A stretch of 64,000 nt of DNA from Acidimicrobiales bacterium (GCA_041394245.1 JAWKIR010000002.1:2858970-2922969); one strand, 5' to 3'; positions 1,341 to 48,652 are shown, counted from the first letter of the stretch. Notes: generated by a model not told the origin, from the letters alone. Numbers and translations: made by a program.

Positions 1341-2453
1341 TCAGCGGATCGAGGGAAGGGAGACGAACGGGGGCTCGGGTTTCGAGAGCGCGTATCCCTG
1401 GAAGAGCTCACAGCCGAGGTTCACGAGATGGTCGATCTCCCGGTGCGACTCGACACCTTCCGCCAACGTGATCGAGCCGAGGTCGCGACACACGACGATC
1501 ATCGACTGGACCAGCGTGCTCTGGGTCGATCGCACATGGATGTCGCGCACGAGTTCCATGTCGAACTTCACGATGTCCGGTTGCATGGTCGCGAGGCTGG
1601 TGAGTCCGGCGTAGCCGGCGCCGAGGTCGTCCAGCGCCAGCCGGTAGCCGAGGCGGCGAAGTGCGTCGAGCCGCGTCTCGACGTCGGAGATCATCGAGAG
1701 GGGTGCCCGTTCGGTGATCTCGAGCACGATGCGGTCGCGGTGAGGCGCCAGTTCGTCGCGGCCCTCGATGAGCATCGGGTCCTCGAGCGACTCGGGCAGC
1801 AGGTTCACGAAGACGGCGACGTCGTCGGGTGCCGACGGCATGTCGGTGGCGACCATGTGGCGGACCAGCCGGTCGAGATCGAATCGGCGATCCAGCTGCG
1901 TGGCGGCATGGATCAGGTCGGGGGGTGACGCGATCACCGGATGATCCACGCGGATGAGCGCCTCGTAGGCGAAGACGCGACCCGCGGGAAGCGCAACGAT
2001 CGGCTGGTACACCATGCGACAAAAGCCGAGTGCTTCCTCGAACGCCTCCTCCAGGCCGGGATCGACGTCGACCGAGCGAGAGGCGCGCCCTGCGGCCAGG
2101 GCGTCGTTGATGGCTTCGACGAGCACGTCGGACGGGCACGGCTTGACGAGGAACCGGTGGATCGCCGCGTCGTTGATCGCCGAGATCGTGGCTTCGAGCG
2201 ATGCCTCACCGGTCAGAATGATCCGCTGAACGTCGGGATGTTCCTCGCGGACGCGGGCCAGGAACTCCGTGCCCGTCATCTGCGGCATGCGCTCATCCGA
2301 CACCACGACGTCCACGTCGCCCGCAGCGAGTGCGGCGAGTCCGTCTCGTCCGGAGTTGGCCGTGCGGACTTCGAACGGCATCTTGCGGAGTGCGACCCGC
2401 ACGGCGTCGGTGACACCGACCTCGTCGTCGACGAAGAGGACGACCGGGCTCAC
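1341..2453 (-). CDS. Response regulator, REC + EAL (c-di-GMP phosphodiesterase type)
   Basis: 370 aa. N-terminal receiver (VLFVDDE...SDERMP...LVKP). C-terminal EAL-type motifs (YQPIV, EALIR, EITE, DDLGAGY, QGY). Confidence 0.9.
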   Translation of the reverse strand: MSPVVLFVDDEVGVTDAVRVALRKMPFEVRTANSGRDGLAALAAGDVDVVVSDERMPQMTGTEFLARVREEHPDVQRIILTGEASLEATISAINDAAIHRFLVKPCPSDVLVEAINDALAAGRASRSVDVDPGLEEAFEEALGFCRMVYQPIVALPAGRVFAYEALIRVDHPVIASPPDLIHAATQLDRRFDLDRLVRHMVATDMPSAPDDVAVFVNLLPESLEDPMLIEGRDELAPHRDRIVLEITERAPLSMISDVETRLDALRRLGYRLALDDLGAGYAGLTSLATMQPDIVKFDMELVRDIHVRSTQSTLVQSMIVVCRDLGSITLAEGVESHREIDHLVNLGCELFQGYALSKPEPPFVSLPSIR

Positions 2454-3592
2454 CGGGCCAGCTCCCGTGCCATCGACAGGGGTGCGAGCACCCGGATCGG
2501 TTCGACGATGCCCGGACCGGCCCCGAAGGTGCGGATGCGGCCGACGAGCACGGTGGTCAAGGTGACGCCTTCTGCCGCCAGTTTCGATCCGGTCGTGGTC
2601 ATCACGTCCTCCGTGAGCTTCATTCCCGCCGCGAGCTGGTCGGCGGTCGTGTCGATCTCGACCATCGCGTTCGACGACGGCTTCACCTTGCCGAGGGCGG
2701 TGAGCAGGAACTCGGGTGGTGGATGGCTCTCGGCGGCCAGGAGCGCCAGCGCGGCGACGCGGCTCTCGCCGGAGCTCACCAGGTCGTCGAAGCGGTACGC
2801 GAGTCGGAGCAGTTCGGTCTTCAACGCCGTGTCACCGCACTCGGCGAGCGTCTCGGCGGTCATCGCCGGCCGGGTGTCCTGCTGATGCGAGACGATCTCG
2901 GCGACGGTCTCGAGGCGTGGGATCCGTGTGAGCAAGTCGCCGGCCACCGTCGAGTGCAGGGCCACCGACCCGGGCAGCAGATCACCGTGGTCGTCGCCGA
3001 CCACGACACAGCCGATCTGGGAGAGGCGCGCGGCGAGGAGGAGGTCCCAGTCCACGTCGCGCTCGAGCTGACGGCACAGACCGGTCACGATGTCGACGAT
3101 GCGCATCGTCTTGCTGTAGGCGCCGACGCTGACCAAGCCGAGCACGTCGGTGAGCATGCCGACGGCGCCACTGAGCGTCTGGTCGAGCAGGTCACGTTCG
3201 ACGGTGCGAAGTCGCGACTGTTCGATCGCCTCGTCGATGGTCTCCGTGAGGAGTTCCGGAGGGCACGGCTTGGTCAGGAAACGGAAGACCCTCGCGTCGT
3301 TGACCGCAGCGATCGCCGCGTCGAGATCGGCTTGTCCGGTGAGGAGGATCCGGGGCAGCTCCGGGTGGCGTTCGCGCACCGCGGTCAGGAACTGCGCGCC
3401 GGACATCTGCGGCATGCGCATGTCCGAGACGACGGCGTCGACCCCGGCCTCGCGCGTCTCGGCGAGATACGAGAGCCCCTCGGCACCGCTCGACGCAACC
3501 GCGACGTTGTAGCGCTTGCGCAGGCCGAGACGCATGCCTTCGAGGAGCTCTGATTCGTCGTCGACGAAGAGAACGGTGGGCTTGTCGGTCAC
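2450..3592 (-). CDS. Response regulator, REC + degenerate HD-GYP-like output domain
   Basis: Real start is GTG at 3592 ([13 protein letters not shown]), a GTGA overlap with the upstream stop. The C-terminal domain aligns in pattern to HD-GYP, but HD is LSQIG, HHE is SHQQD, and there is no GYP. The track ORF 2450..5014 is an over-extension. Confidence 0.75.
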   Translation of the reverse strand: MTDKPTVLFVDDESELLEGMRLGLRKRYNVAVASSGAEGLSYLAETREAGVDAVVSDMRMPQMSGAQFLTAVRERHPELPRILLTGQADLDAAIAAVNDARVFRFLTKPCPPELLTETIDEAIEQSRLRTVERDLLDQTLSGAVGMLTDVLGLVSVGAYSKTMRIVDIVTGLCRQLERDVDWDLLLAARLSQIGCVVVGDDHGDLLPGSVALHSTVAGDLLTRIPRLETVAEIVSHQQDTRPAMTAETLAECGDTALKTELLRLAYRFDDLVSSGESRVAALALLAAESHPPPEFLLTALGKVKPSSNAMVEIDTTADQLAAGMKLTEDVMTTTGSKLAAEGVTLTTVLVGRIRTFGAGPGIVEPIRVLAPLSMARELAR

Positions 3593-4815
3593 GGTCTTGC
3601 CTCGACGAGCCCCGCCTCCCAGCGGTCGAGGGCGGCGGTCATGGTGTCGTCGAGTCGGGTGACGAGCGGCCGACCGAGTGAGTCCCCCAGACGTCGCTGC
3701 ACGATCAGGGCGGCGGCTTGTACCGCGGTGGTGCAGGTGAACGGCGTGTCGATGTCGGGGTCGGGAAGGTCGCTGGATGCGGCCACCGCGAGCACGAGTT
3801 CCGACGGAAGGCCCCAGATGGACAGCAGGTGTCCGGCCAGGTCGGTGTGGCGAACCCCGAACAGCATCCGCTCGGCGGTCGGCAGGTCGATGTCCTCGGC
3901 TTCGGCATGGTCGTAGGCCGCACGGAGGCGACCGGGCGTGGTCGAGGCTTCGAGCAGGATGCCGACGTGCGCGAGCAGACCGCCGACGGCGGCGATCGTG
4001 GCGTGCTCGGGACGGGCCAACGCCGAGGCGACGTGTCCGACCGAGGAGCCGTAGGTCGCGAGGGCATCGGGCGGGAATCCCCGGATGTCGGTGTCGGTGT
4101 CGAGGGCGCGCATCACCTCGACGGTCAGGGCGAGCTGGGCGACGGCGACGATGCCGATCCGGCCGACGGCATCGCGCACGGTCGTCGACGGCGTCGCGCC
4201 GGCGAACGCCGAGTTCGCGAGCTGGAGCAGCTTCGCGGTGATCGCCGGATCGGTTTCGGCAGCGGCCGCCACCGCGTCGAACGACACGTTGGGGTCGGCC
4301 AGAAGGGTCTGGATCCGCAGGTAGTGCTCGGGCAGGCTGGGCACGTTGTCGGCTCCGGCGATGACGCCGGCGACCTGATCGTCGAGGTGGAGCGAGCGAT
4401 ACCGGACCGCGTCGGCCAGGGCGGCGAGCAACTGCTCCCGCGGGCATGGCTTCGTCAACCAGCGGTGGGCCTCGAGCATCGACCTCATGACGAGTTGGGG
4501 CTCGGCCTCGCCGGAGAGGACGAAGCGCACGACATGGGGGTGTTCGCGTCGAATCGTGACCAGCAGGTCGGCGCCGTTGGCTCCGGGCATACGCATGTCC
4601 GTCACGACCACGTCGACGTGGTGTGCGTCGAGGATCTCGAGGGCCTCCTCGACACTCCCCGCCCAGAGGAAGTGATAGCTCTTGCGGGCCTGGCGCAGGG
4701 CGAGGCGAATGCCGTCGAGCACCCCGGGTTCGTCGTCGACGAACAGCACGGTCGGGCGAGGCTCGGCGCCGCCGGCCGGGGCACCGGTCGTGTCGTGGGT
4801 CGCGATCGTGGTCAT
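3589..4815 (-). CDS. Response regulator, REC + HDOD domain
   Basis: Start ATG at 4815 (MTTIATHD...), an ATGA overlap with the kinase stop. Receiver (VLFVDDEP...TDMRMP...LTKP), then an HDOD-like stretch ([19 protein letters not shown]...[16 protein letters not shown]). Confidence 0.8.
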
Positions 4816-6128
4816 GTCGGCGGCTCCGACGGCAACCAGATGCGGAAGGTGGTGCCGACCCCTTCCTCGACATCCACACCGATCTTGCCGTTGTGGCCGT
4901 CCACGACGACAGAGCGCGAGATCGCCAGTCCCTGGCCGGTCCCCCTGCCGGGTTCCTTGGTCGTGAAGAAGGGATCGAAGATCCGGTCGCGGATGGCTGC
5001 GGGGATCCCGCCACCAGTGTCGGCGATCGTCAGACAGACACCGCCGCCCTCCTCGACACACCGGATCGTGATGGTTCCCCGGTCCGGGGTCCCCTCGACC
5101 CGATCGGCGATGGCATGTGCGGCGTTCACCACGATGTTCAGCAGCACCTGCGACAGGTCACCCCGCTTGCACACGACCTGCGGGATCTCCGCCGGTACGA
5201 AGTCGACGTCGGCGATGTACTTGTACTCGTTGCGGGCGACGATGAGCGTCGTGTCGATCATCTCGTTGAGATCCTCGGGAGCGTGCTGCTCACTGCCGGG
5301 ATGGGAGAACTGCTTCATCGCCTTGACGATGGTCGACACCCGTTCGACGCCCTCGAGGGTGCGGCGTACGGCTGCGGGCCCCTCGACGGCGATGAACTCC
5401 AGGTCGGCCTCCTCTTCGGCCTCGTCGACAGCTGCGATCGCACTGTTGATCGCACTGTTGGTCGCGGCGTCGGCGCTGATCATCGTGCGGAGCGCACCGT
5501 GGGCCTCGGCGACTCGCAGGAGGTCGTCGATGACATCGCCCAGGAAGTGGACACTGTCACCGATGTACTGGATCGGCGTGTTGATCTCGTGGGCGACGCC
5601 GGCGGCGAGCTGACCGACCGACTCGAGCTTCTGGGAATGGCGGAGTTCGAGTTCGAGCTGTCGCCGCTCGCTGATGTCGGTCGCGACGCAGACGGCGCCG
5701 GTGGTCTGCCCTTCGTCGTCGACGAGGGCCGACGTCGCGACGAGGACCGGAAGGCTGCCGTCGGCCGTCGCCAGGGATGCCTCGCCGGACCAGACGAGGT
5801 CGTCATCGGAGACCACCTCGCCCGTCCGGCTGATGAGGGTCCAGAGCGACTCGCCGAGCAGTTCCGAGACGTCGGTGCCCGTGAGCCCGGCCGTCGTGCC
5901 CTGGGCCGACACGATCCGCGCGTCGGCATCGGTCACGATGACCGCCGAGTCCATACTCCGCAGGATGCTCTCGAGGAAGCGGCTCTTCGCGCTGATCTCC
6001 TCCTTCGCGAGATACAGCGACCGGGTGTTGTCCTCGATCATCCGCTCGAGGATCGAGATCTTCTCGCGGGCTCGCTCGAGTCGTCCCTCCAGCCGTTCGT
6101 GGGTGTCAGGCATCGACGGGAATGCCAT
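4812..6128 (-). CDS. Cytoplasmic sensor histidine kinase (coiled coil + PAS + HisKA + HATPase)
   Basis: 438 aa with no TM segment. PAS-like [15 protein letters not shown]-box [17 protein letters not shown]1 and G2 boxes (NAAHAI, DTGGGIP, GTGQGL). Confidence 0.9.
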
Positions 6129-6687
6129 CCGCCGGAGTCTGCGTCGTCCGTCCGTCGGCCAGGACGATCCGGAAGGTCGCGTTGGTTCCCTCCGAGCTCA
6201 CCATCTCGTGGGTGAACTCGGTCTCGAACCAGTCGCCGGCGCCGTCCAGCAGACCGTGGACCAACCCGAACAGCCCGAACGGCGACGCGTAGTGCATGAG
6301 GAGCTCACCGTCGCCGATCCGCTCGACGGCGAATCGGGCCGGGGACGCGTCCTGATCAAGCTTGCGGACCTCGGTGTGGACCACCGATTCCAGACCCAGC
6401 AGGAACGCCTCCAGGTCGTCGAAGTGCGCCATGAGGGAGGGAACGGCGCCCGCCAGGGTCGGGAAGGCGTGGCGGCCGCAGGCCTGGAGGGCCTCGTCGA
6501 CGGTCACTCCGAGCTTGGCCGCCGCGGTGACGACGAGCGCCACCAGGTCGCCGGCCGGATAGGTCCCCGGTCCGACGAAGGGCTCGGTGGTCTCGATCGT
6601 CGTGTCGGCCACGATGTCCTCGAGCACGTCCTCGCCGAAGGTCTCCACGACGAAGTTCTCGAACACGTTGAAAATGACGCCCTTCAC
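6106..6687 (-). CDS. H-NOX (heme-NO/O2-binding, HNOB) sensor protein
   Basis: GTG at 6687 is preceded by GAGGAG 6 nt upstream. VKGVIFNVFENFVVETFGEDV resembles H-NOX N-termini. His104, Pro116 and Tyr133-x-Ser135 sit at canonical positions. It overlaps the kinase start. Confidence 0.8.
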   Translation of the reverse strand: MKGVIFNVFENFVVETFGEDVLEDIVADTTIETTEPFVGPGTYPAGDLVALVVTAAAKLGVTVDEALQACGRHAFPTLAGAVPSLMAHFDDLEAFLLGLESVVHTEVRKLDQDASPARFAVERIGDGELLMHYASPFGLFGLVHGLLDGAGDWFETEFTHEMVSSEGTNATFRIVLADGRTTQTPADGIPVDA

Positions 6688-6817
6688 GGAGGACTCCTCT
6701 GCCGATCGATGTCGGCCGCAGCGTCGGTTGCCCCCTGCGCCACATGAGAGACTGGGTCGATGCTGTCGATCGCTGCGCTCCGATCCGCCCCGTCGTCGGG
6801 CGAGGGGTAGGTCGCTC

Positions 6818-9493
6818 GTGCCCGAGATTCCGGCGGGGATCGTGACGTTCCTGTTCACCGATGTCGAGGGGTCGACGCGGCTGTGGGCGGCCGACGCCGA
6901 GGCCACCGCGCGGAGCTTCGAACGCCACGACGAGATCATCCGCGACGCGATCGAGCGCTGCGGCGGCTACGTCTTCGGTTGGGCCGGTGACCACTTCCGC
7001 GGCGCTTTCGGTGATCCCGAGGCGGCGGTCGCCGCAGCGGTGGCTGCGCAGGCGGCGCTGGCGTCGTGTGACTGGCACGGCGACCCGGCACTGCGGGTGC
7101 GGATGGGTCTGCATCGCGGCCGCTCGACCCAGCGGGCCGGCGACTACTTCGGGCCGGTGCCCAACACGGCGGCGCGGTTGGAGGCACTCGCCGCCGGCGG
7201 GCAGATCCTGCTGTCGGCCGCCGTCGCCGACCTGGTCGACGTCGAGATGCTGGCGCTCGGCCAGCACCGTTTGCGTGACGTCCCCGAGCCCGTCGACATC
7301 TTCCAAGTCGGCGTCGAGTCGTTCCGGCCGCTCCAGGTCATCGACCCGTCGCTGTCGACCCTCCCGCTCCCCGGGTCACCGCTGATCGGACGACAACGCG
7401 AAGTCGGGCGGATCCGCCAGCTGCTCGAGACCTCGGCGATGGTGACGCTCACCGGATCCGGTGGCTGTGGGAAGACCCGGCTGGCCGTGGAGGTCGCCTA
7501 CCAGGAACTGCCGAGCCGATCCGACGGCTGCTACTTCGTCGACCTGTCGAGCGTGTCGGACGGGTCCGAGCTGCCGGCCGCCCTCGCGATCGCGGTGCGC
7601 CTCGAGTTCGGCGGCTCGGACGAAGGAGCGCTCGATCAGGTGATCGCGCACCTGGAGCGACGCGATGCCCTCCTCGTTCTCGACAATTGCGAGCACATCG
7701 TCGACGACTGCGCAGTGTTCGCCGAGCGCCTCCTGGCCCGCAACAGCGCGACCGCGGTGCTCGCGACCACCCGGGAGCGTCTCGACGTGGCGGGAGAGGA
7801 TGTGGTCGCCGTCGGTTCGCTGAGCATCGAGGGCGACGCTCCGGCCGTGCAACTCTTCGTCGAGCGGGCAAGGGCGGCGAGCCCGACCTTCACCTGCGGT
7901 GATGAGCCCGACGATCCTGTGCGGGCGACCGTGGGCGAGATCTGTCGACAGCTCGACGGCATGCCACTCGCCATCGAACTCGCCGCCGCCCGAGTGTCGG
8001 TGCTGACGCCCGCCCAGCTGCTCGATCGTATGTCCGACCGATTCCGTCTCCTGTCCGGCGGGCGCGGTCGGCACAAGCGGCGGACACTCCAGGCGACGCT
8101 CGACTGGTCCTACGACCTGCTCGACGAGGACGAGCAGCAGTTCTTCCGGCGTTGCGGGGTCTTCGTCGGGTCCTTCGACCTTCCCGCCGCGGTCGCCGTT
8201 TCGGGCTTCGACGACTATGACGCCATCGACTTGCTCGGCTCTCTCGTCGCCAAGTCGCTCCTGGCGATCGACGACTCGCCCGGCAATCCGACCACGCGGT
8301 ACCGGATGCTCGAGACCATCCGCATCTATGCCGGTGACCTGCTCGCACGGTCCGACGATGTGCTCGCGGCCCGCGAAGCCCACCTGCGCTGGTTCCGTTC
8401 CCGAGCGGTCACGCAGGATTTCGTCGAGGCGGCCGACCTGAACCGGGCGCGCGGGCTCAGGGCCGACTGGCCCAATCTCGCGAGTGCCCTCGAGTGGGCG
8501 CTGGTGCGTGGCACCGATCCGGAGACGGGCGCCACCGGGAGCGAGGTCGCCGCCCACCTCGCGTTCGGTTGTCAGGGCCTCTGGGAGGCGCAGGTGCCGG
8601 CGATCGAGGGACGTCGCTGGGTCGAGCAGATCGCCGAGGACCTCGAGGCCGGGGAGTGCCGTGACTGGATGCGATACATCAGCGTCGTGCTCTCCATGCA
8701 GCTCGACGACTTCGCCGTGGTCCACCGGCAACTCGAGGAACTGATCGCGGCCGAGGGCACGGTGCCCGAGGTGTTGGCACAGGCGGCGGGGCTGATAGCG
8801 TTCCTGTGCGGTCGTCAGGACCGGGATCGGGCCCGAGCGCTCGCCGAGCGAGCCGAGCAGGTGGTGACCGAGCACCGTTTGGCCGGGGAGCATCTCACGC
8901 CCGGTATATGGGCCAGCGGGTGCCTGGCGCTCTACGAGAACCGCGCCGACGTGTCGTTGCCCGAGTTCGCCAGGGCTTCTGCACTGTTGGAGGCCACGGG
9001 GCGTCACACCAACCATCGGGTGATGGCCGGGCTCGCGCTGGCATCGGCCCACATCCTCATCGGCGATCCGGCCCGGGCGCTCGACATCGTCGAGTCGGGA
9101 GAATGGGCGTCGTCGGTGTGGGATTCGTCGCCGACCGTGCGGGCGCTTGCGCTCGTCGACCTCGGACGGACCCCCGAGGCCGCCGAGCTGGTGATCGACT
9201 TCGGCTACGCGGCGCTACGAGGTCGGCTCAGCCGCATGGCCAACGACGCGCTGGTCGGGTTGGCCGCACTGGCGATCAAGCGCGGCGAGGAGGCACATGC
9301 CTGGGTCCTGCTCCAACAGGCCGCGTCGCCGAAGACCCCCTTCACCATCGCGCTGGCGGAGGGACTGGCCGATCGGCTCGGCCACGGCGAGGACCTGCGA
9401 GCCATCCATCGCGACCGTCGGCGGCCGCTGACGGAGCTCGACGCGTCCGAGCATCTCCGGGCCGAGCTCGACCGGATTCGGCTCGTTCGCTGA
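6818..9493 (+). CDS. Class III adenylate/guanylate cyclase fused to a STAND/AAA ATPase and TPR-like repeats
   Basis: GTG at 6818 (VPEIPAGIVTFLFTDVEGSTRLW). Cyclase motifs GDHFRGAF and PNTAARL. P-loop GSGGCGKTRLA. Long helical-repeat C-terminus. No HTH seen. Confidence 0.85.
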   Translation: MPEIPAGIVTFLFTDVEGSTRLWAADAEATARSFERHDEIIRDAIERCGGYVFGWAGDHFRGAFGDPEAAVAAAVAAQAALASCDWHGDPALRVRMGLHRGRSTQRAGDYFGPVPNTAARLEALAAGGQILLSAAVADLVDVEMLALGQHRLRDVPEPVDIFQVGVESFRPLQVIDPSLSTLPLPGSPLIGRQREVGRIRQLLETSAMVTLTGSGGCGKTRLAVEVAYQELPSRSDGCYFVDLSSVSDGSELPAALAIAVRLEFGGSDEGALDQVIAHLERRDALLVLDNCEHIVDDCAVFAERLLARNSATAVLATTRERLDVAGEDVVAVGSLSIEGDAPAVQLFVERARAASPTFTCGDEPDDPVRATVGEICRQLDGMPLAIELAAARVSVLTPAQLLDRMSDRFRLLSGGRGRHKRRTLQATLDWSYDLLDEDEQQFFRRCGVFVGSFDLPAAVAVSGFDDYDAIDLLGSLVAKSLLAIDDSPGNPTTRYRMLETIRIYAGDLLARSDDVLAAREAHLRWFRSRAVTQDFVEAADLNRARGLRADWPNLASALEWALVRGTDPETGATGSEVAAHLAFGCQGLWEAQVPAIEGRRWVEQIAEDLEAGECRDWMRYISVVLSMQLDDFAVVHRQLEELIAAEGTVPEVLAQAAGLIAFLCGRQDRDRARALAERAEQVVTEHRLAGEHLTPGIWASGCLALYENRADVSLPEFARASALLEATGRHTNHRVMAGLALASAHILIGDPARALDIVESGEWASSVWDSSPTVRALALVDLGRTPEAAELVIDFGYAALRGRLSRMANDALVGLAALAIKRGEEAHAWVLLQQAASPKTPFTIALAEGLADRLGHGEDLRAIHRDRRRPLTELDASEHLRAELDRIRLVR

Positions 9494-9523: not shown

Positions 9524-9553
9524 TTGACAGAGAACATCGAAAACGCATGAAAT
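9524..9553 (+). promoter_or_regulatory. Putative promoter of the toxin operon (TTGACA -35, TGAAAT -10-like), possibly giving a leaderless mRNA
   Basis: TTGACA at 9524-9529, an 18-nt spacer, then TGAAAT at 9548-9553 in a local AT-rich patch. ATG at 9561 lies 7 nt after the -10. AATGCATT palindrome at 9551-9558. Confidence 0.4.
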
Positions 9554-11588
9554 GCATTCAATGTCTCCACAACTCACGCCGCGACCCGCTGATCTCTCGA
9601 CGACCGGATCGTCCGACACGCTCGTTCTCGACGTGCCGGCCGCCCGCGAACTGGTCGGGGCGCTGACGAACGCCGCCGAGGCGCTGGCCGTCGATCACCT
9701 TGCGCTGCGGTCGATGCTCGACGAAGCCACCGCCATCCTCCGAGCCGACCACACGGGCGCACTGGTGCCGCTCACGGCCGCGCGTCAGGCATGCGCCGGA
9801 CTCGCTGCGGATCTGAGGTTCCGTGTCGATCTGGTCGAGCGGACCACACACTCGCTCGACCGGATCGACGAATTGTCGCGGGGCGACTCGGCCTGGGGAA
9901 CCCGCGAGCGCCGACGCCTGCTGCTCGGTCTGGTCGGCGGCGATGTCGACCACGCCCGGCGGGTCGAACGGGCGATGGCGGCAGGGCACGATGCCGCCGC
10001 GGCATTCCGGATCGTCGATGCCGAGCTGCGCCTCGAGTATCGGGTCGGTGCGCTCATGGAGGCGTTTTCGATCGACGAGGCCGCCGCCCTCGCCATGGTC
10101 GAACGGGTCGACGCGGCACTGATCGATCTCCTCGACCGGGGCTACGCCACCGACGACGCAGTGGCCGCGCTCGCGATCGTCGAGAACTTCGGGCTCGACC
10201 TCGCCACCGCACTCGACCATGCCGCTGCCGTCGGGATCGACCTGCACGCCGCACTCGGACAGATGCTCACGGCCCGCGCGCTCGGGGTGACCCTGGCCGA
10301 GTATGTCGCGCTCACCGGTCTGGAGGAGCACTTCGCGGTGTTCGACAACGCCACCGGAGGCTCCCGCGACCAGCGGGTGTCGGCCAAGGACCTCGAGTTC
10401 GTCGTCGCCCATCCGTGGCGGTTCACTCCGAGCCAGGTACTCGCCGCCCAGGCGCTGCTCGACCAGCCGCTCCTGCGCAATCGGCTCGACACCGCCAACC
10501 ACAACGCCGACCTCTTCTCCGGCACCGCCTTCGGGTCGATGGAGCCCGGCGACGGCCTGATCGCCGACGTCGACCTGCACGCCTTCCTGCTGAAGGCCCA
10601 GCTCCACACGATCCTCGGCGACTACGCCGACCGGATCGACGTCGCGAACGATCCGTCGGGCATCGTCGACGGGTTCCGTTCCGAGAACGACTTCCGCGCG
10701 TTCATCGCCGACAACCCCGACCTCCCCGAGTCGGTCCTGGCCGCGGCGACGGTGGCACTCGAGTCCGGATGGTTCGACCAGACCTGGTGGGACGAGCACA
10801 AGGACGAGCTGGCGATGGGGGCGGCGCTGCTCGCCGCAGGGCTGGTCGTCGTCGCGACCGGTGGTGCCGCCTCGATGATCCTCGTGGTCGGCGCCGGCGC
10901 GCTCGCCGGTGGAGCGACGACGGTCGCCATCAACCTCGCCACCGGCGCACCGATACTCGACGACGCCCTCATGAACTCGGTCAGGGGTGGCTTCATCGGC
11001 GCCGGCGTGCATGGTGTCGTCACGGGCGCAGCGGCCTACGGGACGGCGTCGACGGGGGTCGCTCGGGTCGCCGCCGTCGCCGGCGCGACATCGGGTGCCG
11101 CCGACGTCGTGGCCGCCGGAGGCGTCGACCTGCTCATCGACGAGCAGTATGAGGCGGCCGTCCACGGCATGGCCAACGACGTCGGCAATGTCGCCGGGGC
11201 GATCGACCTCGGCCTCAGTGCCGGCGAGTGGGCGAGCCGTACGCCGGTCACCTTCGATTCGGTCGAGGAGCAACTCGCCGCGCTGTCCGACCGGATCAGC
11301 CGACAGCGCCAGCTCCGCCACATCAAGGATTCACCGCTGCACCGGTCGGGGGGCTACTTCGTCGATCCGGCCGATGCCCAGCGGGTGCTCGACGCCGTCC
11401 ACGATGGGTCGGCGGAGGTCTTCGGGATCACTCGCGGTCAGGATCTCCTGGTGCGCTACGACGAGGTCATCGGGATCCATGTCAACCGCAACGGCGGAGT
11501 CGTGCCGGGCATCGAGACCACGACGTTCACCGTCAAGGGAAGCGCGAAGCCGAGTGTGGTGCCGGTGCGTCCGGGGAGGACGGAGTGA
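9552..11588 (+). CDS. Polymorphic toxin: helical N-terminal region, Gly-rich hydrophobic region, C-terminal Ntox50-like toxin domain
   Basis: 678 aa. Gly/Ala-rich TM-like stretch at ~10805-11140. The C-terminus RQLRHIKDSPLH...DAQRVL...VRYDEVIGIHV...TTTFTVKGSAKPSVVPVRP matches the recalled pattern of polymorphic toxin type 50 domains. Alternative start at 9561. Confidence 0.7.
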   Translation: MHSMSPQLTPRPADLSTTGSSDTLVLDVPAARELVGALTNAAEALAVDHLALRSMLDEATAILRADHTGALVPLTAARQACAGLAADLRFRVDLVERTTHSLDRIDELSRGDSAWGTRERRRLLLGLVGGDVDHARRVERAMAAGHDAAAAFRIVDAELRLEYRVGALMEAFSIDEAAALAMVERVDAALIDLLDRGYATDDAVAALAIVENFGLDLATALDHAAAVGIDLHAALGQMLTARALGVTLAEYVALTGLEEHFAVFDNATGGSRDQRVSAKDLEFVVAHPWRFTPSQVLAAQALLDQPLLRNRLDTANHNADLFSGTAFGSMEPGDGLIADVDLHAFLLKAQLHTILGDYADRIDVANDPSGIVDGFRSENDFRAFIADNPDLPESVLAAATVALESGWFDQTWWDEHKDELAMGAALLAAGLVVVATGGAASMILVVGAGALAGGATTVAINLATGAPILDDALMNSVRGGFIGAGVHGVVTGAAAYGTASTGVARVAAVAGATSGAADVVAAGGVDLLIDEQYEAAVHGMANDVGNVAGAIDLGLSAGEWASRTPVTFDSVEEQLAALSDRISRQRQLRHIKDSPLHRSGGYFVDPADAQRVLDAVHDGSAEVFGITRGQDLLVRYDEVIGIHVNRNGGVVPGIETTTFTVKGSAKPSVVPVRPGRTE

Positions 11589-11968
11589 TGGACGACCATC
11601 TGGGGGAGGACCGTCGGTCGGAGGCGCACCAGTTCACGACGCGCATGTTCCTGGCGGTGTGCGAGGCGGCCTTGGGCGCGTTCGACGACAACCTCTGGGG
11701 TATCGCCTTCACGACGGAGTTCGAGACCGAGACCGTCGATCTCCATCTGTTCTTCGAGGTGGAGCCGACCGATCTCGACCGCTACGAGATCTCCGAGTTC
11801 GCATTCGCCTTCGATGCCATCGGCGAGGTCGGACTGCGCATCCATCGAACCGTCATGGCTGCCGAGAGGTTCGTCCCCGACCACGGCCCGTTGATCTGGT
11901 GTTTCCGCCGTCGCCATCCCGCGGCAGAGCTGCCCGACGACGTCGGCTTCGAGGAGCTCGACTACTAG
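11588..11968 (+). CDS. Putative cognate immunity protein (126 aa, acidic)
   Basis: The ATG overlaps the toxin stop (TGATG). Small acidic protein directly downstream of the toxin domain. No recognised family. Confidence 0.55.
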   Translation: MDDHLGEDRRSEAHQFTTRMFLAVCEAALGAFDDNLWGIAFTTEFETETVDLHLFFEVEPTDLDRYEISEFAFAFDAIGEVGLRIHRTVMAAERFVPDHGPLIWCFRRRHPAAELPDDVGFEELDY

Positions 11969-13548
11969 CTCGACCAGGCAACAGCGGGATCGTCGACCTC
12001 TCGCACGTCGGCGTCGTCGGTGAAGGCGACGAAACGATCGAACGAACGCAGGAACCAACGGTCGTGGGTGACGCACACCACCGTCCCCTCGAACACTGCG
12101 AGTCCGGCCTCGAGGGCCTCGGCCGACGCGACGTCGAGATTGTCGGTCGGTTCGTCGAGCAGGAGCAGGTTGGCGCCGTCGATCTCGAGCAGCAGGATCT
12201 GGAAACGCGCCTGTTGACCTCCCGAGAGGGTCTCCCATGCCTGATCGGCGGCCAGGTTCAGCTCGTAGCGCCGGAGCCGCGCCATGGCCGGCCCCCGATT
12301 GAGGTCGCGGGCCGCGAGGATGTCGATCAGGGGGCGTCCGCGGAGTTCGGGATGATCGTGGGTCTGGTTGAACAGGCCCGCCACGACTCGGGCGCCCAGT
12401 TTCCACTCGCCCTCGTGGTCGACGTCGCCGCCTGCGAGGAGGCGCAGGAAATGCGACTTGCCGGTGCCGTTGCGGCCGACCACGGCGACCCGTTCACCGA
12501 ACCAGATCTCCAGATCGAACGGATACGTGAGGTCGCTGAGTTCGAGCTGTTCGCACATCACGACGCGCTTGCCGGTGCGGCCCCCCTCGAGTCGCATGTC
12601 GATCTTCTGCTCGCGGGCGAGCTCGCGGGGTGCACCCTGCTCGTCGAAGTGACGAAGCCTGGTCTCGGCGGCGCGGGCCCGACTCGCGTTGGCGTCGCTC
12701 ATCGCGGCGCGGCGCTTCTGCTCCTTCATGTGGTTCACGAGACGCTTGCGCTCCTCGGCCCACCGGCGCTGCTCGTCGCTGATGAGCGACAGGCGATGCT
12801 CGCGCGCCTCGCTCCAGGTCGAGAACGATTCACCGTGGGTCCACGCGCCGTTCGCCTCGATCGTCACGACCTTCTGCGACGCCTCGGCGAGCAGCTCGCG
12901 GTCGTGGCTGACGAAGAGCACCGCCTTCGGGGTCGCTCGGATCCGTTCGGCCAACCACTCCTTGCCCGGCACGTCGAGGAAGTTGTCGGGCTCGTCGAGC
13001 AGGAGGACGTCGTGTTCGGAGCGCAGCAACAGTTCCAACGCCATGCGCTTCTGCTCACCTCCGGAGAAGGTCGCCATCGACCGATCGGCGATGTCGGACC
13101 ACGGGAGGTCGGTGACGCGATGGGCACACTCCTCCCAGAGGACCTCGGCGTCGTAGCCGCCGATGCCGCCCCAGAGATCGAGCGCCTTCGCGTACTTCAT
13201 GCCGTCGTCGGTGCCATCCATCATCTGGCCGTGGGCCCGATCGAGGCGAGCGCCGACCTCCCGGAGCTCGGGGGAGGACAGCGACAGATAGAGATCGCGC
13301 ACGGTCGTCGAGCTGTCGAGGGCACCGACCAGCTGGGTCATCACGCCGAGCGAACCCTGGACGGAGATGGTGCCGTCGGTCGGCGTTTCCGTCCCGGCGA
13401 CGAGTCGCATCACCGTGGTCTTGCCGGCGCCATTGGCGCCGACCAAGGCGACGTGCTCGCCCTCGCCCACGCGAAACGACACGTCGTCGAGCAGCATCTG
13501 CCCGTCGGGAAGCGACCATCCGAGATGGCTGACCTGGATGGAACCCAC
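11965..13548 (-). CDS. ABC-F family ATPase (two ABC domains, no TMD)
   Basis: 527 aa. Two Walker A sites (GANGAGKTT, GRNGTGKSH), two signature motifs (FSGGEQKR, LSGGQQAR) and an inter-domain linker. Confidence 0.9.
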   Translation of the reverse strand: MGSIQVSHLGWSLPDGQMLLDDVSFRVGEGEHVALVGANGAGKTTVMRLVAGTETPTDGTISVQGSLGVMTQLVGALDSSTTVRDLYLSLSSPELREVGARLDRAHGQMMDGTDDGMKYAKALDLWGGIGGYDAEVLWEECAHRVTDLPWSDIADRSMATFSGGEQKRMALELLLRSEHDVLLLDEPDNFLDVPGKEWLAERIRATPKAVLFVSHDRELLAEASQKVVTIEANGAWTHGESFSTWSEAREHRLSLISDEQRRWAEERKRLVNHMKEQKRRAAMSDANASRARAAETRLRHFDEQGAPRELAREQKIDMRLEGGRTGKRVVMCEQLELSDLTYPFDLEIWFGERVAVVGRNGTGKSHFLRLLAGGDVDHEGEWKLGARVVAGLFNQTHDHPELRGRPLIDILAARDLNRGPAMARLRRYELNLAADQAWETLSGGQQARFQILLLEIDGANLLLLDEPTDNLDVASAEALEAGLAVFEGTVVCVTHDRWFLRSFDRFVAFTDDADVREVDDPAVAWSS

Positions 13549-25695: not shown

Positions 25696-27858
25696 CTACA
25701 TCCGGGTCAACGCCTCCAGGATGCTGGCGCGACTCCAACTTGCATGGTGGTATCGCAAGCCTGCCACGTCAAGGCCTTGGCTGGTGCGGTGGCCGCAATG
25801 GGTCCAGATGAGTACGACCAGGTCGCGGTCGGGGTCGACGGCGCCGGCCCAGTCGAGCGACGGTGGCTTCTTGCGCTCGCTCTCGTGCCATCGCAGATCC
25901 TTCAGCCCGAGATCGGTCGCGAGGCGCTCGGCCCAGGGTTGACGACGGCCGCCCACGATGTGGAGGACCTTCCCCTGTACCGTCGATCGCAGCCTCGACG
26001 CCACGTCCCCGTCCCGTTTCTCGCGCCACTCCTGGAAGTCGACGAGCTCGTCGAGCACCGTCCGGAGCCGCTCGACCGCGGTGTCGACCGCCTCGTCGGC
26101 ACCGGCGGGCCAGCGCTCGCGAAGGGTGAACGCCAACTCGGTGGAGATGTCGGGATCGCCGAGCCCGGCGCTCTCCGCGGCGGCTTCGAGGAGGAGATCG
26201 CGGGCGATCGGAAGCGTCTCGTCCTGCTCGAAGAACAGGCGGGCGGTCGCGATCCGGAGCCGCACCTGGTCGAGGCGGGGCAAGAGCGAGCGGCCCCGTT
26301 CACCGAGCTCGAGGACGTCGTCGAGCTCCCCGGCATCGATGTGGTTCTCGATCGCTTCGCGCAGGTAGGGCGCCAGCGCCGCGGCGTTGATGTCCCAGGT
26401 GAGAATCTCCCGCAACGCGTCGTCGGGCATGCGGTGTGGGTCCGGCCAACGGGTGAGGGCGCGATCGAGCCAGGCGTCGGGGTCGGCGGGTGCACATTCG
26501 CGAGCGACGCGCAGCGCGAGATCGTCTCGCAATCGCAGGAACACCGATGGCAGCAGCCGGTCGAGCACCTCCTTGCCGGCCAGCTCGTCGAGGATGACCT
26601 CGGCGATCTCCCTCACCGCGCCATCGGGAAGGCGGGGGAGCTCGGCTGCGAGACGAGCCACGTTGGACTCGACTCCGAGGTCGATCTCGCGCAGCAGCGC
26701 GGCGACCTGTGTCGGAATGCTGAAGTGCAGGCCGGCACTGAGTCGTCGAAAGGCATCGCCGGTGCGGAACCGCGCCGGGTCGTCGAGCAGATCGATGACC
26801 ACCTGGTAGTCGCCGATGTCGTAGGCGGCTTCGGCGGTCATCGATCGGACCACTGCGTCGTCGGGGGCGAGCGGGAGGATGTGGTCCTGGAGGAGGTTGA
26901 GCCACTGGGCGGGCTCGATGGCGTCGAGTCGTCGCAGGCGTTCGGCCAGTGCCTGCACCAGCGCCGGATCGGTGGCGACCGGCGCCGGCAACGCCGCGGC
27001 TTCGGCGGACGGGGTCGGCGCCGCCGGGAGCCTCGGCGGGGGAGGCGGTGAAGGAGCGGGAGCGGCGGCCTTGTGCGCATCGATCGCGAACGTGATCCGT
27101 GTCGAGAGCAGGGGCTCGGGCACGAAGGCCATGTCGATCGTGTGGGTGCCGGCGGCGAGTGGGCGGACGGGCACGTGGAGATAGTCGTCGTGGTCGGCGC
27201 GCTCCTTCTCGATTCCACCGACGACGGCGCCGGGCGGATTGGAGTCGACGAGGACGGAGTGGACGTGGTCGTCGCCGCCGGGGGAGTGGACCTCGATCAC
27301 CGCGTTGGCGATCTCGCCGAGTTCGAGGCTGCGCTCGCGAACCTCGTGGCCGTGCGGATCGAGCACACGCACCAGACGGGCGAAGTTCGATTCGGCGTAG
27401 AACTGGTTACCCCGGAGGCGATGGACGACGTGGCGCCACGCCTCGCGCAACTCGTGGTCCGACCGTGGCGGCCGCAGCCCCTCGGCCGGCGCCCGCCAGG
27501 CGAAGTAGGGCGGCTGGGTCGGGTGCGGGCGCAAGGGCGCGATCAGTGCGTCGTCGTCCTCCACGACCGGCCATGGCCCGACCTTGATCGTGACCTGGAG
27601 CCCGTTGCGGGTTCGTTCGGCCGCGGTGATCGAGGCGTAACGGGCGGGGTCGACCTGGCTGTACGGGGAGTCCGACAGGATCACGATGGCACCTTCGCCG
27701 ACCTCCACGTCGAGCCCGGGGGCCAGCCATCGTTCGGCGTAGACGATGTCGAACTCGGTGCCTTCGGGTGCGGAGACGAGCGCGACGTTCTGTTGTCGGT
27801 ACTGCAGGATCCGTCCTGCCTTGAGCAGGTGGAGCAGCTGTGGTGCCTCGTCCGCCAT
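25696..27858 (-). CDS. Large uncharacterised protein (720 aa) with Pro-rich linker, helical repeats and a DUF2325-like C-terminal domain
   Basis: The C-terminus KVLHIVGGRRQPW...DRDLVVLIWTHCGHRTSQ fits the recalled DUF2325 pattern. N-terminal 270 aa unrecognised. Its ATG shares a CCATGG with a divergent ATG. Confidence 0.65.
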   Translation of the reverse strand: MADEAPQLLHLLKAGRILQYRQQNVALVSAPEGTEFDIVYAERWLAPGLDVEVGEGAIVILSDSPYSQVDPARYASITAAERTRNGLQVTIKVGPWPVVEDDDALIAPLRPHPTQPPYFAWRAPAEGLRPPRSDHELREAWRHVVHRLRGNQFYAESNFARLVRVLDPHGHEVRERSLELGEIANAVIEVHSPGGDDHVHSVLVDSNPPGAVVGGIEKERADHDDYLHVPVRPLAAGTHTIDMAFVPEPLLSTRITFAIDAHKAAAPAPSPPPPPRLPAAPTPSAEAAALPAPVATDPALVQALAERLRRLDAIEPAQWLNLLQDHILPLAPDDAVVRSMTAEAAYDIGDYQVVIDLLDDPARFRTGDAFRRLSAGLHFSIPTQVAALLREIDLGVESNVARLAAELPRLPDGAVREIAEVILDELAGKEVLDRLLPSVFLRLRDDLALRVARECAPADPDAWLDRALTRWPDPHRMPDDALREILTWDINAAALAPYLREAIENHIDAGELDDVLELGERGRSLLPRLDQVRLRIATARLFFEQDETLPIARDLLLEAAAESAGLGDPDISTELAFTLRERWPAGADEAVDTAVERLRTVLDELVDFQEWREKRDGDVASRLRSTVQGKVLHIVGGRRQPWAERLATDLGLKDLRWHESERKKPPSLDWAGAVDPDRDLVVLIWTHCGHRTSQGLDVAGLRYHHASWSRASILEALTRM

Positions 27859-27913
27859 GGCGGGAGGATACGGCTGGTCGCCCCGGGAGACCAGCGAGTC
27901 GTACGCTGCACGG

Positions 27914-29044
27914 ATGGCTCGCTATCGACGTCGTCGGCCCAAGTCGGTTCGAGAGGTACTCGACGGTCTGGGCTTCGATCCCGAGACGATCGAGGAGGCC
28001 GAGGAGACCGGCACCGCCGAGTTGCTCGCGATCGACGGCCTGGTGCTCCCCGAACGAGGGAAGCTGACGCTGGCCGAACTCGCCGACAAGGTCGGTGCGG
28101 AGCCCGCCGCGGTGCGAGTGCTCTGGCGCAGCCTCGGCTTCGTCGAACCGGTCGAGGACGACCCGATGTTCACCAAGACCGATGTCCGGATCCTGCGCAA
28201 CCTGATCGGCCTCACGAAGGCCGGGGCCGTACGTCCGGCGGTCGCGCTGCAGCTCGGGCGGGTCCTCGGGCAGGCGATGTCGCAGGTGGCGACGGCGGTT
28301 GTCGATGCGACCGAGGCCCAGGCCGCCGAGGCTCGCGACAGCGATGACGAAGCCGAATCCCCCTTCGCGGCCAGTGCCGGTGAGATCCTCCCGTTCCTGT
28401 CCGACGCGGTCGACTACACGTTTCGACGTCACCTCAGGGCCGCCGCTCGACGTCGCGTCGATCTGGCGATGCTCGTCGAGGGCACCGGCCAGGTCGTCGG
28501 CTTCGCCGACCTCGTCCGGTTCACCGAGCTCAGCATGCAACTCGCCGACGACGAGCTGGCCGAGGTCGTGGGCCGCTTCGACGACCTGGTCCATCAGGTG
28601 GTCGTCGAACACGACGGCCGCATCGTCAAGATGATCGGCGACGCGGCGATGTTCACGGTCGTCGATCCGGTGCAGGGCGCGATGATCGCGCTGGAGATGG
28701 CGGAGGCCGTTGCCGCCGAGGACGCCCTGGGAAGCGTGCGAATCGGTATGGCCTACGGGCCGATCCTGACGCGTGACGGTGATCTCTACGGGCCGGTCGT
28801 CAATCTCGCGAGTCGGCTGGTGGGAGTCGGCCGTGCCGGTGCGGTCAACGTGAGCCACGAGTTGCGCGACGCGATCGGCAGCGACCACCGGTTCGCACTG
28901 CGCAGCCTCGGGCCCAAACCGCTCAAGGGCATCGGGGATGCGCGGGTGTATCGCCTGCGTCCGGGTGAGGACTGGGGACTCGATCTACGGACGAGCGCTC
29001 CAGCCGCGGCCGCCGAGATCGCGGATCAGCTCCATCATCCGTGA
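27914..29044 (+). CDS. Class III adenylate cyclase with Rv1264-like N-terminal regulatory domain
   Basis: ATG at 27914 (alternative 27857). Catalytic FADLVRFT...KMIGDAAM...GPVVNLASRL. The N-terminal helical domain resembles the Rv1264/Rv2212 architecture. Confidence 0.8.
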   Translation: MARYRRRRPKSVREVLDGLGFDPETIEEAEETGTAELLAIDGLVLPERGKLTLAELADKVGAEPAAVRVLWRSLGFVEPVEDDPMFTKTDVRILRNLIGLTKAGAVRPAVALQLGRVLGQAMSQVATAVVDATEAQAAEARDSDDEAESPFAASAGEILPFLSDAVDYTFRRHLRAAARRRVDLAMLVEGTGQVVGFADLVRFTELSMQLADDELAEVVGRFDDLVHQVVVEHDGRIVKMIGDAAMFTVVDPVQGAMIALEMAEAVAAEDALGSVRIGMAYGPILTRDGDLYGPVVNLASRLVGVGRAGAVNVSHELRDAIGSDHRFALRSLGPKPLKGIGDARVYRLRPGEDWGLDLRTSAPAAAAEIADQLHHP

Positions 29045-47830: not shown

Positions 47831-47854
47831 TAGGAGGTGGGGAAGGACGTGGCA

Positions 47855-48652
47855 ATGCTCGATTTCGACCGACAATCCGTGGAGATCGGCGAGGGCCGTC
47901 TCGCCAAGCTGCGCCGCTTCAACCTGGTGATGGGTCTGGTCCATCTCGTGTCCGGTGCGCTGATGGTGGTGCTCGGCAACGACTTCGAGCTGGAGATCAG
48001 CTCGTTCAGCCTGGGCGGCCCCCCGGGCACCCCGCTCGCCGACGGCACCCTCGATTCGGTGATCGGCGTTCCACTCGCGTGGGCGACCGCGTCGTTCCTC
48101 TTCCTGTCGGCCTTCTTCCATTTCGTGATCGCCACCGTCGGGTTCCGTGCCTACGGCTCGGAGCTCCGCCACGGGCGCAACCGGTTCCGCTGGGTCGAGT
48201 ATGCGCTGTCGTCGACGCTGATGATCGTGTTGATCGCGCTCGTCACCGGCATCACCGATCTGGCCGCGCTCATCGCGATCGCGTTCGTGAACGCCTCGAT
48301 GATCCTCTTCGGCTGGATCATGGAGATGGTCAACGACGCCGACCGCCCGGTCTGGTGGACGCCCTTCTGGTTCGGGTCGATCGCCGGGATCGGTCCGTGG
48401 GTCGCCATCGCGACCTATCTCGTGGTCAACCTCAGCCGTGAAGGCGCCGAGGGTCCCCCCGGCTTCGTCTACGGGATCATCGTCACGATCTTCGTGCTGT
48501 TCAACATCTTCGCCATCAACCAATGGCTGCAGTACCGCAGGGTCGGCCGTTGGGCCGACTACGTCTACGGCGAGACCGCCTACATCGTGCTCAGCCTCGT
48601 GGCGAAGAGTGTCCTGGCATGGCAGATCTTCGTCAACACGCTGATCGATTGA
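47855..48652 (+). CDS. Heliorhodopsin
   Basis: Near-colinear motif match to recalled HeR 48C12: RFN..MG..H, GGPPGT, FFHFVI, FRWVEYALSS (counterion Glu), VNASMILFGW, PFWFGSIAGI.PW, PGFVYGII, YIVLSLVAKSVLAWQIF (Schiff-base Lys). Alternative GTG starts at 47837 and 47849. Confidence 0.9.
   Translation: MLDFDRQSVEIGEGRLAKLRRFNLVMGLVHLVSGALMVVLGNDFELEISSFSLGGPPGTPLADGTLDSVIGVPLAWATASFLFLSAFFHFVIATVGFRAYGSELRHGRNRFRWVEYALSSTLMIVLIALVTGITDLAALIAIAFVNASMILFGWIMEMVNDADRPVWWTPFWFGSIAGIGPWVAIATYLVVNLSREGAEGPPGFVYGIIVTIFVLFNIFAINQWLQYRRVGRWADYVYGETAYIVLSLVAKSVLAWQIFVNTLID

Follow-up and report, generated by a model that had tools for sequence, protein, structure and literature searches.

Polymorphic toxins accompanied by an immunity gene are already well established as a category, and the described systems closest to the locus analysed here carry a C-terminal domain of the Ntox50 type, predicted to be an RNase of the BECR fold (PMC3482391). 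In Bacillus subtilis 6633, the LXG toxin YxiD ends in such a tip (YxiD-CTD, PDB 9V8I), which was found by experiment to be a metal-dependent tRNase that is sterically blocked by YxxD and whose catalytic residues were defined through mutagenesis (PMC12700104). In Neisseria meningitidis, MafB2-CT and MafI2 (PDB 8HHJ) form a toxin-immunity pair in a diderm host, the toxin's carrier being a MafB N-terminal part (DUF1020) that bears a Sec signal. Here, a 64-kb stretch of DNA from an uncultured marine actinobacterium (Acidimicrobiales), referred to below as the window, was analysed around a gene for a 678-amino-acid (aa) protein and a small gene coupled to it, which a previous reading of the DNA alone (the sequence-only reading) had taken for a polymorphic toxin and its immunity gene. 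It is likely that both genes form a two-gene polymorphic toxin-immunity module, whose basic elements are:

9552..11588, + strand: toxin gene, supported by the open reading frame (ORF) list, the database match and codon composition; an alternative ATG at 9561 gives 675 aa
11277..11585, + strand: C-terminal toxin tip, residues 576-678, a predicted divergent Ntox50-clade RNase domain of the BECR fold, pI 9.4
11573..11579, + strand: Shine-Dalgarno sequence GGGGAGG for the immunity gene, within the 3' end of the toxin gene and 8 nt 5' of the ATG at 11588
11588..11968, + strand: candidate immunity gene, 126 aa, in translational coupling with the toxin gene

As in the YxiD-YxxD pair, a long helical N-terminal carrier is followed by a C-terminal domain of ~100 aa assigned to the Ntox50 clade with a BECR fold, and the candidate immunity gene lies immediately downstream. 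Unlike YxiD, the window carrier has no LXG domain and contains a NolX-type module plus a Gly-rich hydrophobic region, neither of which has been reported for YxiD, and the predicted immunity protein resembles no PDB chain in sequence, not even YxxD; it is likewise unrelated to MafI2.

The ORF list of the window places the toxin gene at 9552-11588 (+), and the same gene is called by NCBI from the ATG at 9561 as a 675-aa 'hypothetical protein' of an Acidimicrobiales metagenome-assembled genome (MAG). Database searches with the 678-aa protein returned this MAG protein as a 100% match plus 28 homologues; looking up the NCBI protein by its exact sequence gave no record. The GC content at third codon positions (GC3) of the gene is 0.86, like that of coding sequence elsewhere in the window, where GC amounts to 68-70% overall and to 62-73% per kb. 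The positions previously assigned to the ORF, its tip, the small ORF and the Gly-rich region were all verified.

The Ntox50-clade tip

The motif from which the C-terminal module had been assigned to type-50 polymorphic toxins, RHI...DAQRVLDAV...VRYDEVIGIHV...TFTVKGSAKPSVVPVRP, reads as claimed, and the tip coincides with the sole Pfam hit of the 678-aa protein, Ntox50 (PF15542), at residues 582-665 (model positions 1-85 of 92). Among close homologues, just 5 of 21 gave an Ntox50 match at E<=1 in Pfam, with a best value of 0.0093. When a 13-tip profile of the family was searched against 5.8 billion proteins, proteins annotated with PF15542 or named 'polymorphic toxin type 50' were reached at 1e-28; the matches overall ranged from 1e-28 to 1e-15, with the PF15542-annotated proteins P0033, P0034 and P0041 at 1e-25 to 1e-28, and also comprised fragments fused to PT-HINT or named by their sources as RHS repeat-associated or filamentous haemagglutinin (FHA) proteins. 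An exhaustive search with the family profile revealed hundreds of proteins matching only positions ~575-675. The domain lay 10 residues or fewer from the C-terminus in all of the 113 tip homologues that were extracted, whose host proteins have 87 to 2259 aa. In 39 larger tip carriers, Pfam detected Ntox50 in 19 (E<=0.001; 25.6 bits for P0147), RHS repeats in nine, PT-HINT in four, WXG100_2 in one and T7SS_signal in one.

The fold of the tip was analysed in parallel. The AlphaFold model of the tip on its own, with a mean predicted local distance difference test (pLDDT) score of 70 and 80-90 in the core, consists of one helix followed by a beta-sheet. When this model was compared by Foldseek with 350,542 PDB chains, the two best matches were the only solved Ntox50 toxins (TM 0.47-0.56): first MafB2-CT (8HHJ_B, probability 1.00, TM 0.50/0.56, E 0.05) and then YxiD-CTD (9V8I_B, probability 0.97, E 0.09). 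At the sequence level, a broader tip profile run against PDB sequences recovered the MafB2 toxin over the whole domain length (E 2.6e-6), making MafB2-CT the best match both by structure and by PDB profile; the narrow 13-sequence profile gave no true match in the PDB sequences. The full-length protein had no match in NCBIfam or among PDB sequences, and its full-length model produced just non-significant helical-repeat matches in Foldseek against the PDB. The tip is thus homologous to Ntox50, its proposed identity having been borne out by profile (1e-28 and, for MafB2, 2.6e-6) and by fold (8HHJ and 9V8I).

The positions that correspond to the active site of YxiD are:

11316..11321, + strand: R589-H590, predicted catalytic pair, equivalent to YxiD K446-H447 and invariant in all tip alignments
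11535..11555, + strand: K662...S668 (IKGxxxPSVVP), invariant residues that occupy the places of YxiD H521 and H528
YxiD H521: replaced by K662 in the window tip
YxiD K524: replaced by S664 in the window tip (Thr in most relatives)
YxiD H528: replaced by S668 in the window tip

In HMMER alignments, R589-H590 aligns with the KH of both MafB2 and YxiD, and the C-terminal xVP motif of YxiD has its counterpart in the window tip, as has the (K/R)-H pair. The C-terminal histidines, which form part of the 'HxVP' motif of Zhang et al. (2012), are missing from the window tip and present in MafB2. Across a large subclade, which includes proteins labelled Ntox50 in databases, IKGTxxPSVVP stands for IHxGKxxxHxVP. 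Because H521 and H528 are replaced, the activity and mechanism of YxiD cannot be simply transferred to the window tip. Judged from these alignments, the tip is a diverged, non-canonical branch of the Ntox50 clade whose catalytic set differs, and RNase activity is predicted for it.

The coupled small gene

The overlap previously claimed between the start of the small ORF and the end of the toxin gene is present: the toxin stop TGA (11586-11588) and the ATG at 11588 share one base (TGATG), with the Shine-Dalgarno sequence upstream. The product has 126 aa, 28 of them acidic and 10 basic (GC3 of the gene, 0.87), and its charge is complementary to that of the tip, with a pI of 4.4 vs. 9.4 for the last 103 residues of the toxin. 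No relative of this protein was found in Pfam, NCBIfam or the PDB, and none of its 22 homologues, whose named sources are all Acidimicrobiales MAGs, has a Pfam domain. The immunity protein is a new small family, and the locus defines, together with it, a large subclade of Ntox50 in which K/S takes the place of the catalytic H/H pair.

The distribution of this gene follows the tip. A homologue was found directly downstream in 10 of 10 loci with an intact Ntox50 tip, that is, the window, L001, L002, L005-L007, L023-L025 and L027, of which L001 and L027 are probably one organism counted separately. When all loci bearing this tip are counted the figure is 10 of 11, and the exception, L026, has a mutated tip. 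No homologue was found at the loci with other tips or without a tip (L003, L004, L008, L010, L012, L021, L022 and L029). At L003, an unassigned tip (P0025) is followed by an unrelated coupled ORF of 105 aa, and in P0097 a DUF6883 tip is followed by an overlapping DUF4926 gene; DUF6883 and DUF4926 were proposed as a toxin-immunity pair in a recent preprint.

At L026 (1077-3092), the immunity gene is cleanly missing, with 35 bp between the toxin stop and the convergent gene for ABC-F. The tip encoded there carries two substitutions, K662 to E (IKG to IEG) and S668 to R (PSVVP to PRVVP), at residues that are invariant across three tip alignments of 13, 20 and 39 sequences, over 70 further sequences in all. 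That predicted active-site residues have decayed where the antidote was lost is as expected of a real toxin-immunity pair. The toxin/immunity layout suggested by the sequence-only reading is supported by these comparative data, in which the small ORF tracks the tip and not the scaffold, so that the downstream ORF behaves as a candidate cognate immunity gene.

Regarding the downstream border of the locus, the stop codon of the immunity gene (TAG, 11966-11968) overlaps that of a convergent gene for an ABC-F ATPase (11965-13548, - strand), thus leaving no space for a terminator. The ABC-F gene is kept in some of the syntenic loci and missing in L002, L008 and L029.

A scaffold with interchangeable tips

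The part of the protein that precedes the tip begins with three elements and ends with a conserved motif:

9633..9881, + strand: long helical hairpin, residues 28-110 (helices 28-63 and 68-110, pLDDT ~90), conserved in the family and without Pfam or NCBIfam match
9888..9902, + strand: SAWGT turn, residues 113-117, a degenerate copy of NWxG(T/S)DNDP between helices 68-110 and 114-127
9891..10328, + strand: helical region, residues 114-259, with eight short helices (AlphaFold, pLDDT 77-90)
11115..11171, + strand: scaffold-end motif GGxDLLxPExxExxVH, residues 522-540, with G523, D526 and E534 invariant in alignment A1

No Pfam or NCBIfam domain was detected in residues 1-560. The full-length AlphaFold model (mean pLDDT 71) shows a hairpin, eight shorter helices, a mixed region with three short strands, the four helices of the Gly-rich region and the alpha+beta tip. 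As a scaffold this carrier has not been described before, and it was seen in Acidimicrobiia: its family has ~46 representatives at 50% clustering with E<1e-30, and in species-representative genomes 9 of 9 scaffold loci belong to MAGs of Acidimicrobiia or unclassified Actinomycetes, as do all of the family's named records. From the model, the N-terminal hairpin is a candidate secretion or targeting domain. The turn that follows it has the consensus 'LxxWxGxxxDP' in alignment A1, and NWxG(T/S)DNDP is found also in the N-termini of distant relatives. As for the 'five short helix repeats' described previously, helices are indeed modelled at residues 114-259, eight in number, and their repeat character was weakly supported, with a marginal signal in a profile self-comparison (P~0.006).

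Beyond the scaffold-end motif, the members of the family split into different tips (P0023-P0029), and the matches of distant scaffolds stop at profile positions ~550-565. The same scaffold (profile positions ~10-560) was found with an Ntox50 tip, with an EndoU_bacteria tip (L012, E 1.6e-12), with a DUF6883/BECR-Tox3 tip followed by DUF4926, with a RES tip, with a TNT tip and with several unassigned tips of 100-250 aa. Other members have no tip (L004 and L010) or end in a short tail of ~80 aa (L008 and L029). Tips are thus swapped on a common scaffold across genomes, in agreement with the proposed polymorphic toxin, and a scaffold with interchangeable C-terminal tips, as deduced here from alignments, is the pattern that defines a polymorphic toxin family.

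The main orthologous group is syntenic, with a cyclase-STAND (signal transduction ATPase with numerous domains) gene upstream and genes for ABC-F, an esterase, an F420H2-quinone reductase and a major facilitator superfamily transporter downstream. Within this group, identity reaches 45-64% in the scaffold and 51-66% in the tip, and the tip and the immunity gene are present or absent as a unit. A metagenome scan with a narrower alignment revealed only further orthologues.

Such a conserved chromosomal synteny among housekeeping genes, and the lack in the tip of two catalytic histidines of the characterised Ntox50 enzymes, would also be compatible with a housekeeping role without any toxin, for instance a membrane-associated RNA-processing enzyme with a regulatory partner. 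This explanation is very improbable, as it is opposed by the exchange of the tip for RES, TNT, EndoU and DUF6883 domains, by the strict co-variation of tip and immunity gene, with decay of invariant tip residues where the small ORF was lost, and by the presence of the tip family elsewhere at the C-termini of Rhs, HINT and FHA toxins.

In the window, the cyclase-STAND gene lies 58 bp upstream of the toxin gene on the same strand (6587-9493, +) and encodes a 968-aa protein with an adenylate/guanylate cyclase domain and a STAND NTPase (AAA_22/NB-ARC). Its orthologues additionally carry HTH_77, and a homologue is found in nine related loci. This protein might be a regulator of the toxin operon.

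Delivery, export and neighbouring genes

The central part of the scaffold contains:

10281..10706, + strand: EF-hand-like module with three Asp-rich loops, residues 244-385, probably Ca2+-binding, of the HrpF/NolX/HrpK1 type
10770..10808, + strand: Trp-rich motif WFDQTWWDEHKDE, residues 407-419, directly N-terminal of the hydrophobic region
10805..11140, + strand: Gly/Ala-rich hydrophobic region, residues ~419-530, 44% Gly+Ala, grand average of hydropathy (GRAVY) +1.07

HrpF, NolX (NopX), PopF and HrpK1 are proteins of plant-associated proteobacteria that belong to a putative type III secretion system (T3SS) translocon; HrpF-family proteins have repeats of ~110 aa and are thought to form the translocon (PMC5483457). 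The EF-hand-like loops pointed out in the sequence-only reading are real, with nearly invariant Asp residues, and they are better called a module of the HrpF/NolX/HrpK1 type. The best-conserved residues across 45 distant relatives were D265, D313, D334, D341, D363, D373 and D380, and some scaffold relatives gave weak matches to Pfam EF-hand models; the module is probably Ca2+-binding. Pfam models for NolX (PF05819) and HrpF/HrpK1 (PF16937) matched 10 and 4 of 45 scaffold relatives, respectively, and neither matched the window protein itself; below threshold were the scaffold members P0103 (HrpK1, 7.9e-6), P0106 (NolX, 0.0076) and P0218 (NolX, 9e-4).

In a search of 1.8 billion proteins, the profile of the close family reached P0140, a bona fide NolX-family protein with six copies of the module that exceeds both Pfam thresholds (83.7 bits for NolX, and 58 bits), at 2e-25. 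By hhalign, residues 244-348 of the window protein aligned with residues 315-414 of NopX (E 3.5e-5, probability 72%), the comparison set being seven sequences: NopX of NGR234, the HrpF/NolX proteins of R. etli and Bradyrhizobium and four PopF-type proteins of Ralstonia. A direct comparison of the close-family hidden Markov model with NopX and the R. etli HrpF/NolX protein was negative. At the profile level it is established that the central module, an Asp-rich helix-loop element, is shared with the HrpF/NolX/HrpK1 translocators, this being a matter of predicted homology. Two proteins, P0126 (926 aa) and P0140 (666 aa), consist almost wholly of six to seven tandem modules of this type. In our literature search no paper joining NolX to polymorphic toxins was found.

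In NopX, as in the window protein, the module precedes a Gly-rich hydrophobic stretch, which was read from the sequence at ~470-575 in the C-terminus. From this colinear architecture, we infer that both may have a membrane-insertion function in common. In contrast to the window locus, HrpF/NolX proteins have neither a toxin tip nor an immunity gene, and no T3SS genes were found in the window scan; the hydrophobic regions are not detectably homologous, as the Gly-rich region gave no significant alignment with the NopX C-terminus, and homology of the membrane segments is unproven.

The Gly/Ala-rich hydrophobic region of ~110 aa noticed previously is present, with the composition given above. The Trp-rich motif at its N-terminal border is strongly conserved as WFDESWWQEHKDELA in alignment A1, where D409 and W412 are invariant, and served as the search pattern for related loci. 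AlphaFold predicts four helices (residues 410-436, 442-464, 472-498 and 502-521), two of them strongly hydrophobic and two Gly-rich and amphipathic; Kyte-Doolittle windows above 1.6 occur at 418-444 only within the whole protein. The residues G430, G438, T457, N461 and G479 are invariant in A1. With 3 Lys+Arg vs. 7 Asp+Glu, the low positive charge of this sequence misfits the positive-inside rule of resident membrane proteins and would fit a secreted segment that inserts into membranes.

The former guess that this region is 'pre-toxin TG-like' was abandoned, since no Pfam result contained a PF14449 match: at E<=1, PT-TG (PF14449) was detected neither in the window protein nor in 20 homologues, and for 45 scaffold relatives (E<=0.1) the first 25 entries of a 32-family list did not contain it. 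Two short relatives, P0142 and P0194, have the same hairpin and EF-hand-like module with a different pre-toxin segment instead of the Gly-rich region. That segment holds 'SFIPxxGxxxD', which occurs also in the NopX C-terminus (LSFIPGIGQVADL; L014:1072-2862) and in P0044, a small protein with an Ntox50 tip, at the N-terminus (AGFIPGLGAVADV), and it may be a shared PT-TG-like element.

Gly-rich hydrophobic helical segments are also present in TelE, EsxX and TspA and in the transmembrane pre-toxin regions of type VI secretion system Rhs effectors (PMC10434224, PMC12744356). In TelE, EsxX and TspA the glycine zipper is C-terminal and is the toxin itself, whereas in the window protein the segment lies upstream of an enzymatic tip; compared with these toxins and with the Rhs effectors, the window protein has neither LXG nor PAAR, and no sequence homology was detected. 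An explanation along these lines would be that the scaffold itself is the main weapon, a Ca2+-dependent glycine-zipper pore-former or depolariser of the TspA, EsxX or TelE type with the RNase tip as an option. In its favour, tipless members are common and intact (L004, L008, L010, L029, P0026, P0027 and P0029), the Gly-rich region with its conserved polar residues T457 and N461 is second only to the Asp loops in conservation, and glycine-zipper toxins of type VII secretion systems (T7SS) are documented (PMC10434224, PMC12744356). However, the tipless loci lack the adjacent small immunity-like gene expected for a self-toxic pore former, the presence of the immunity gene follows the tip and not the scaffold, and known glycine-zipper toxin families showed no similarity in sequence, so that we regard a pore-forming scaffold as quite unlikely.

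With respect to export of the predicted toxin, the previous statement that no signal peptide, LXG, WXG or Rhs domain is recognisable stands after the Pfam and hydrophobicity tests. No signal peptide was found, there being no hydrophobic window before residue 418; a Pfam search (E<=1) of the window protein plus 20 homologues gave no LXG, WXG100 or Rhs match, and of the 32 families obtained with 45 scaffold relatives, the first 25 on the list include neither LXG nor WXG100. PAAR, VgrG, TPS and MafB-N domains were not found with Pfam and NCBIfam, and no YxxxD/E motif was seen by eye. Secretion-system genes, those for T7SS and T3SS included, were absent among the 20 largest of ~50 predicted genes of the window, itself 64 kb of a 2.9-Mb contig, and the recurrent neighbours at ~30 related loci showed housekeeping synteny only, without secretion genes. 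The literature searched contained no paper joining Acidimicrobiia to type VII secretion, and T3SS injectisomes are, to our knowledge, not known in Actinomycetota, to which Acidimicrobiia belong. By analogy, our leading guess would be a type VII-like route, from the helical hairpin with its WxG-type turn. In style, the hairpin and the NWxG(T/S)DNDP turn of the family are like those of T7SS substrates; the turn falls after the second hairpin helix and is degenerate (SAWGT) in the window protein. That WXG100_2 and T7SS_signal match carriers of the same tip is no more than a lead.

The main alternative to a secreted toxin is a membrane-anchored toxin-antitoxin (TA) or abortive-infection system in which the Gly-rich helices hold the protein in the membrane of its producer, with the tip in the cytoplasm, controlled by the antitoxin and released upon stress or phage attack. 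The lack of a signal peptide, LXG or WXG100 and of secretion genes in the window scan and at ~30 loci would be expected of such a system, the four predicted hydrophobic helices would put both termini on one side of the membrane, the locus shows vertical inheritance and conserved synteny beside the cyclase-STAND regulator, and RES and BECR RNases are known also from classical TA systems (PMC3482391). In contrast, PADLOC models match neither the toxin nor the immunity protein, and a scaffold of ~560 residues with tip swapping is the criterion by which Zhang et al. separated secreted polymorphic toxins from TA systems. The same tip is found on Rhs, HINT and FHA-annotated carriers and on those matching WXG100_2 and T7SS_signal, the Asp-rich module is common with translocators secreted by T3SS, and the hydrophobic region is without the positive charges that flank membrane segments in resident proteins. 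A TA or abortive-infection module is thus unlikely.

If the two genes form a polymorphic toxin-immunity module, the toxin would be built, in order, of the helical hairpin, the block of short helices, the Asp-rich module of the HrpF/NolX type, the hydrophobic region of ~110 residues and the RNase tip of ~100 residues. In the producer, the immunity protein would most likely bind the basic tip and block its active site, as YxxD does with YxiD. The toxin would leave the producer cell by a route that is not visible in the sequence, after which the Ca2+-binding module and the hydrophobic region would insert into the membrane of the target and carry the tip across. The tip would then cut tRNA or other RNA by means of H590, K662 and S668.

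Several observations weigh against this toxin-immunity module. The Ntox50 match of the window protein in Pfam does not reach the gathering score (15.5 vs. 22.2 bits, E 0.03), the Foldseek E-values of the tip are modest (0.05 and 0.09), and K662 and S668 stand in for H521 and H528, two of three histidines that YxiD requires. Inheritance of the locus is vertical within the orthologous group; it is not a mobile island, and its tip matches the scaffold in conservation, unlike in fast-swapping toxin islands. Only a single copy of the tip and the immunity gene was detected by tblastn within the window, that is, no orphan cassettes, which are common near the main gene in polymorphic toxin systems and not obligatory. 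In addition, homology with HrpF/NolX is limited to the EF-hand-like module, the scaffold matches being sub-threshold or transitive, and export is inferred, with no secretion signal and, among the 20 largest genes of the window and at ~30 related loci, no secretion genes found.

Little is known of how the enzymatic polymorphic toxins of Gram-positive bacteria exit the producing cell and pass the membrane of the target, and the scaffold is a compact and conserved test case, as it unites the lack of a recognisable export signal, a T3SS-translocon module and a charge-poor hydrophobic segment between carrier and tip, and bears at least five different known toxin domains. Its hosts are abundant uncultured aquatic Acidimicrobiia, in which interbacterial antagonism has hardly been studied. 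Tentatively, and with more doubt than confidence, the scaffold could be a self-contained delivery device of monoderms that is exported by an unrecognised route, inserts into the membrane of the target cell with its Ca2+-binding HrpF/NolX-type module and its Gly-rich hydrophobic helices, and translocates any tip attached to it. If so, it would be an evolutionary relative of the T3SS translocators of plant pathogens acting outside any T3SS, and would show in concrete terms how nuclease toxins of Gram-positive bacteria get through the membrane of the target.

Other genes of the window were also recorded. A signalling cluster at 1341-6939 (- strand) comprises genes for an H-NOX (haem-NO-binding) protein, a PAS histidine kinase and response regulators with HDOD and with EAL domains, which suggests an NO-sensing circuit linked to cyclic di-GMP. 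A second protein with an adenylate/guanylate cyclase domain (432 aa) is encoded at 27746-29044 (+ strand). The gene at 42572-46354 (+ strand) encodes a subtilase of 1260 aa that has a P-domain and three pre-peptidase C-terminal (PPC) domains and is probably a large protease that is secreted, and a heliorhodopsin gene (PF18761, E 9e-97) is located at 47837-48652 (+ strand).

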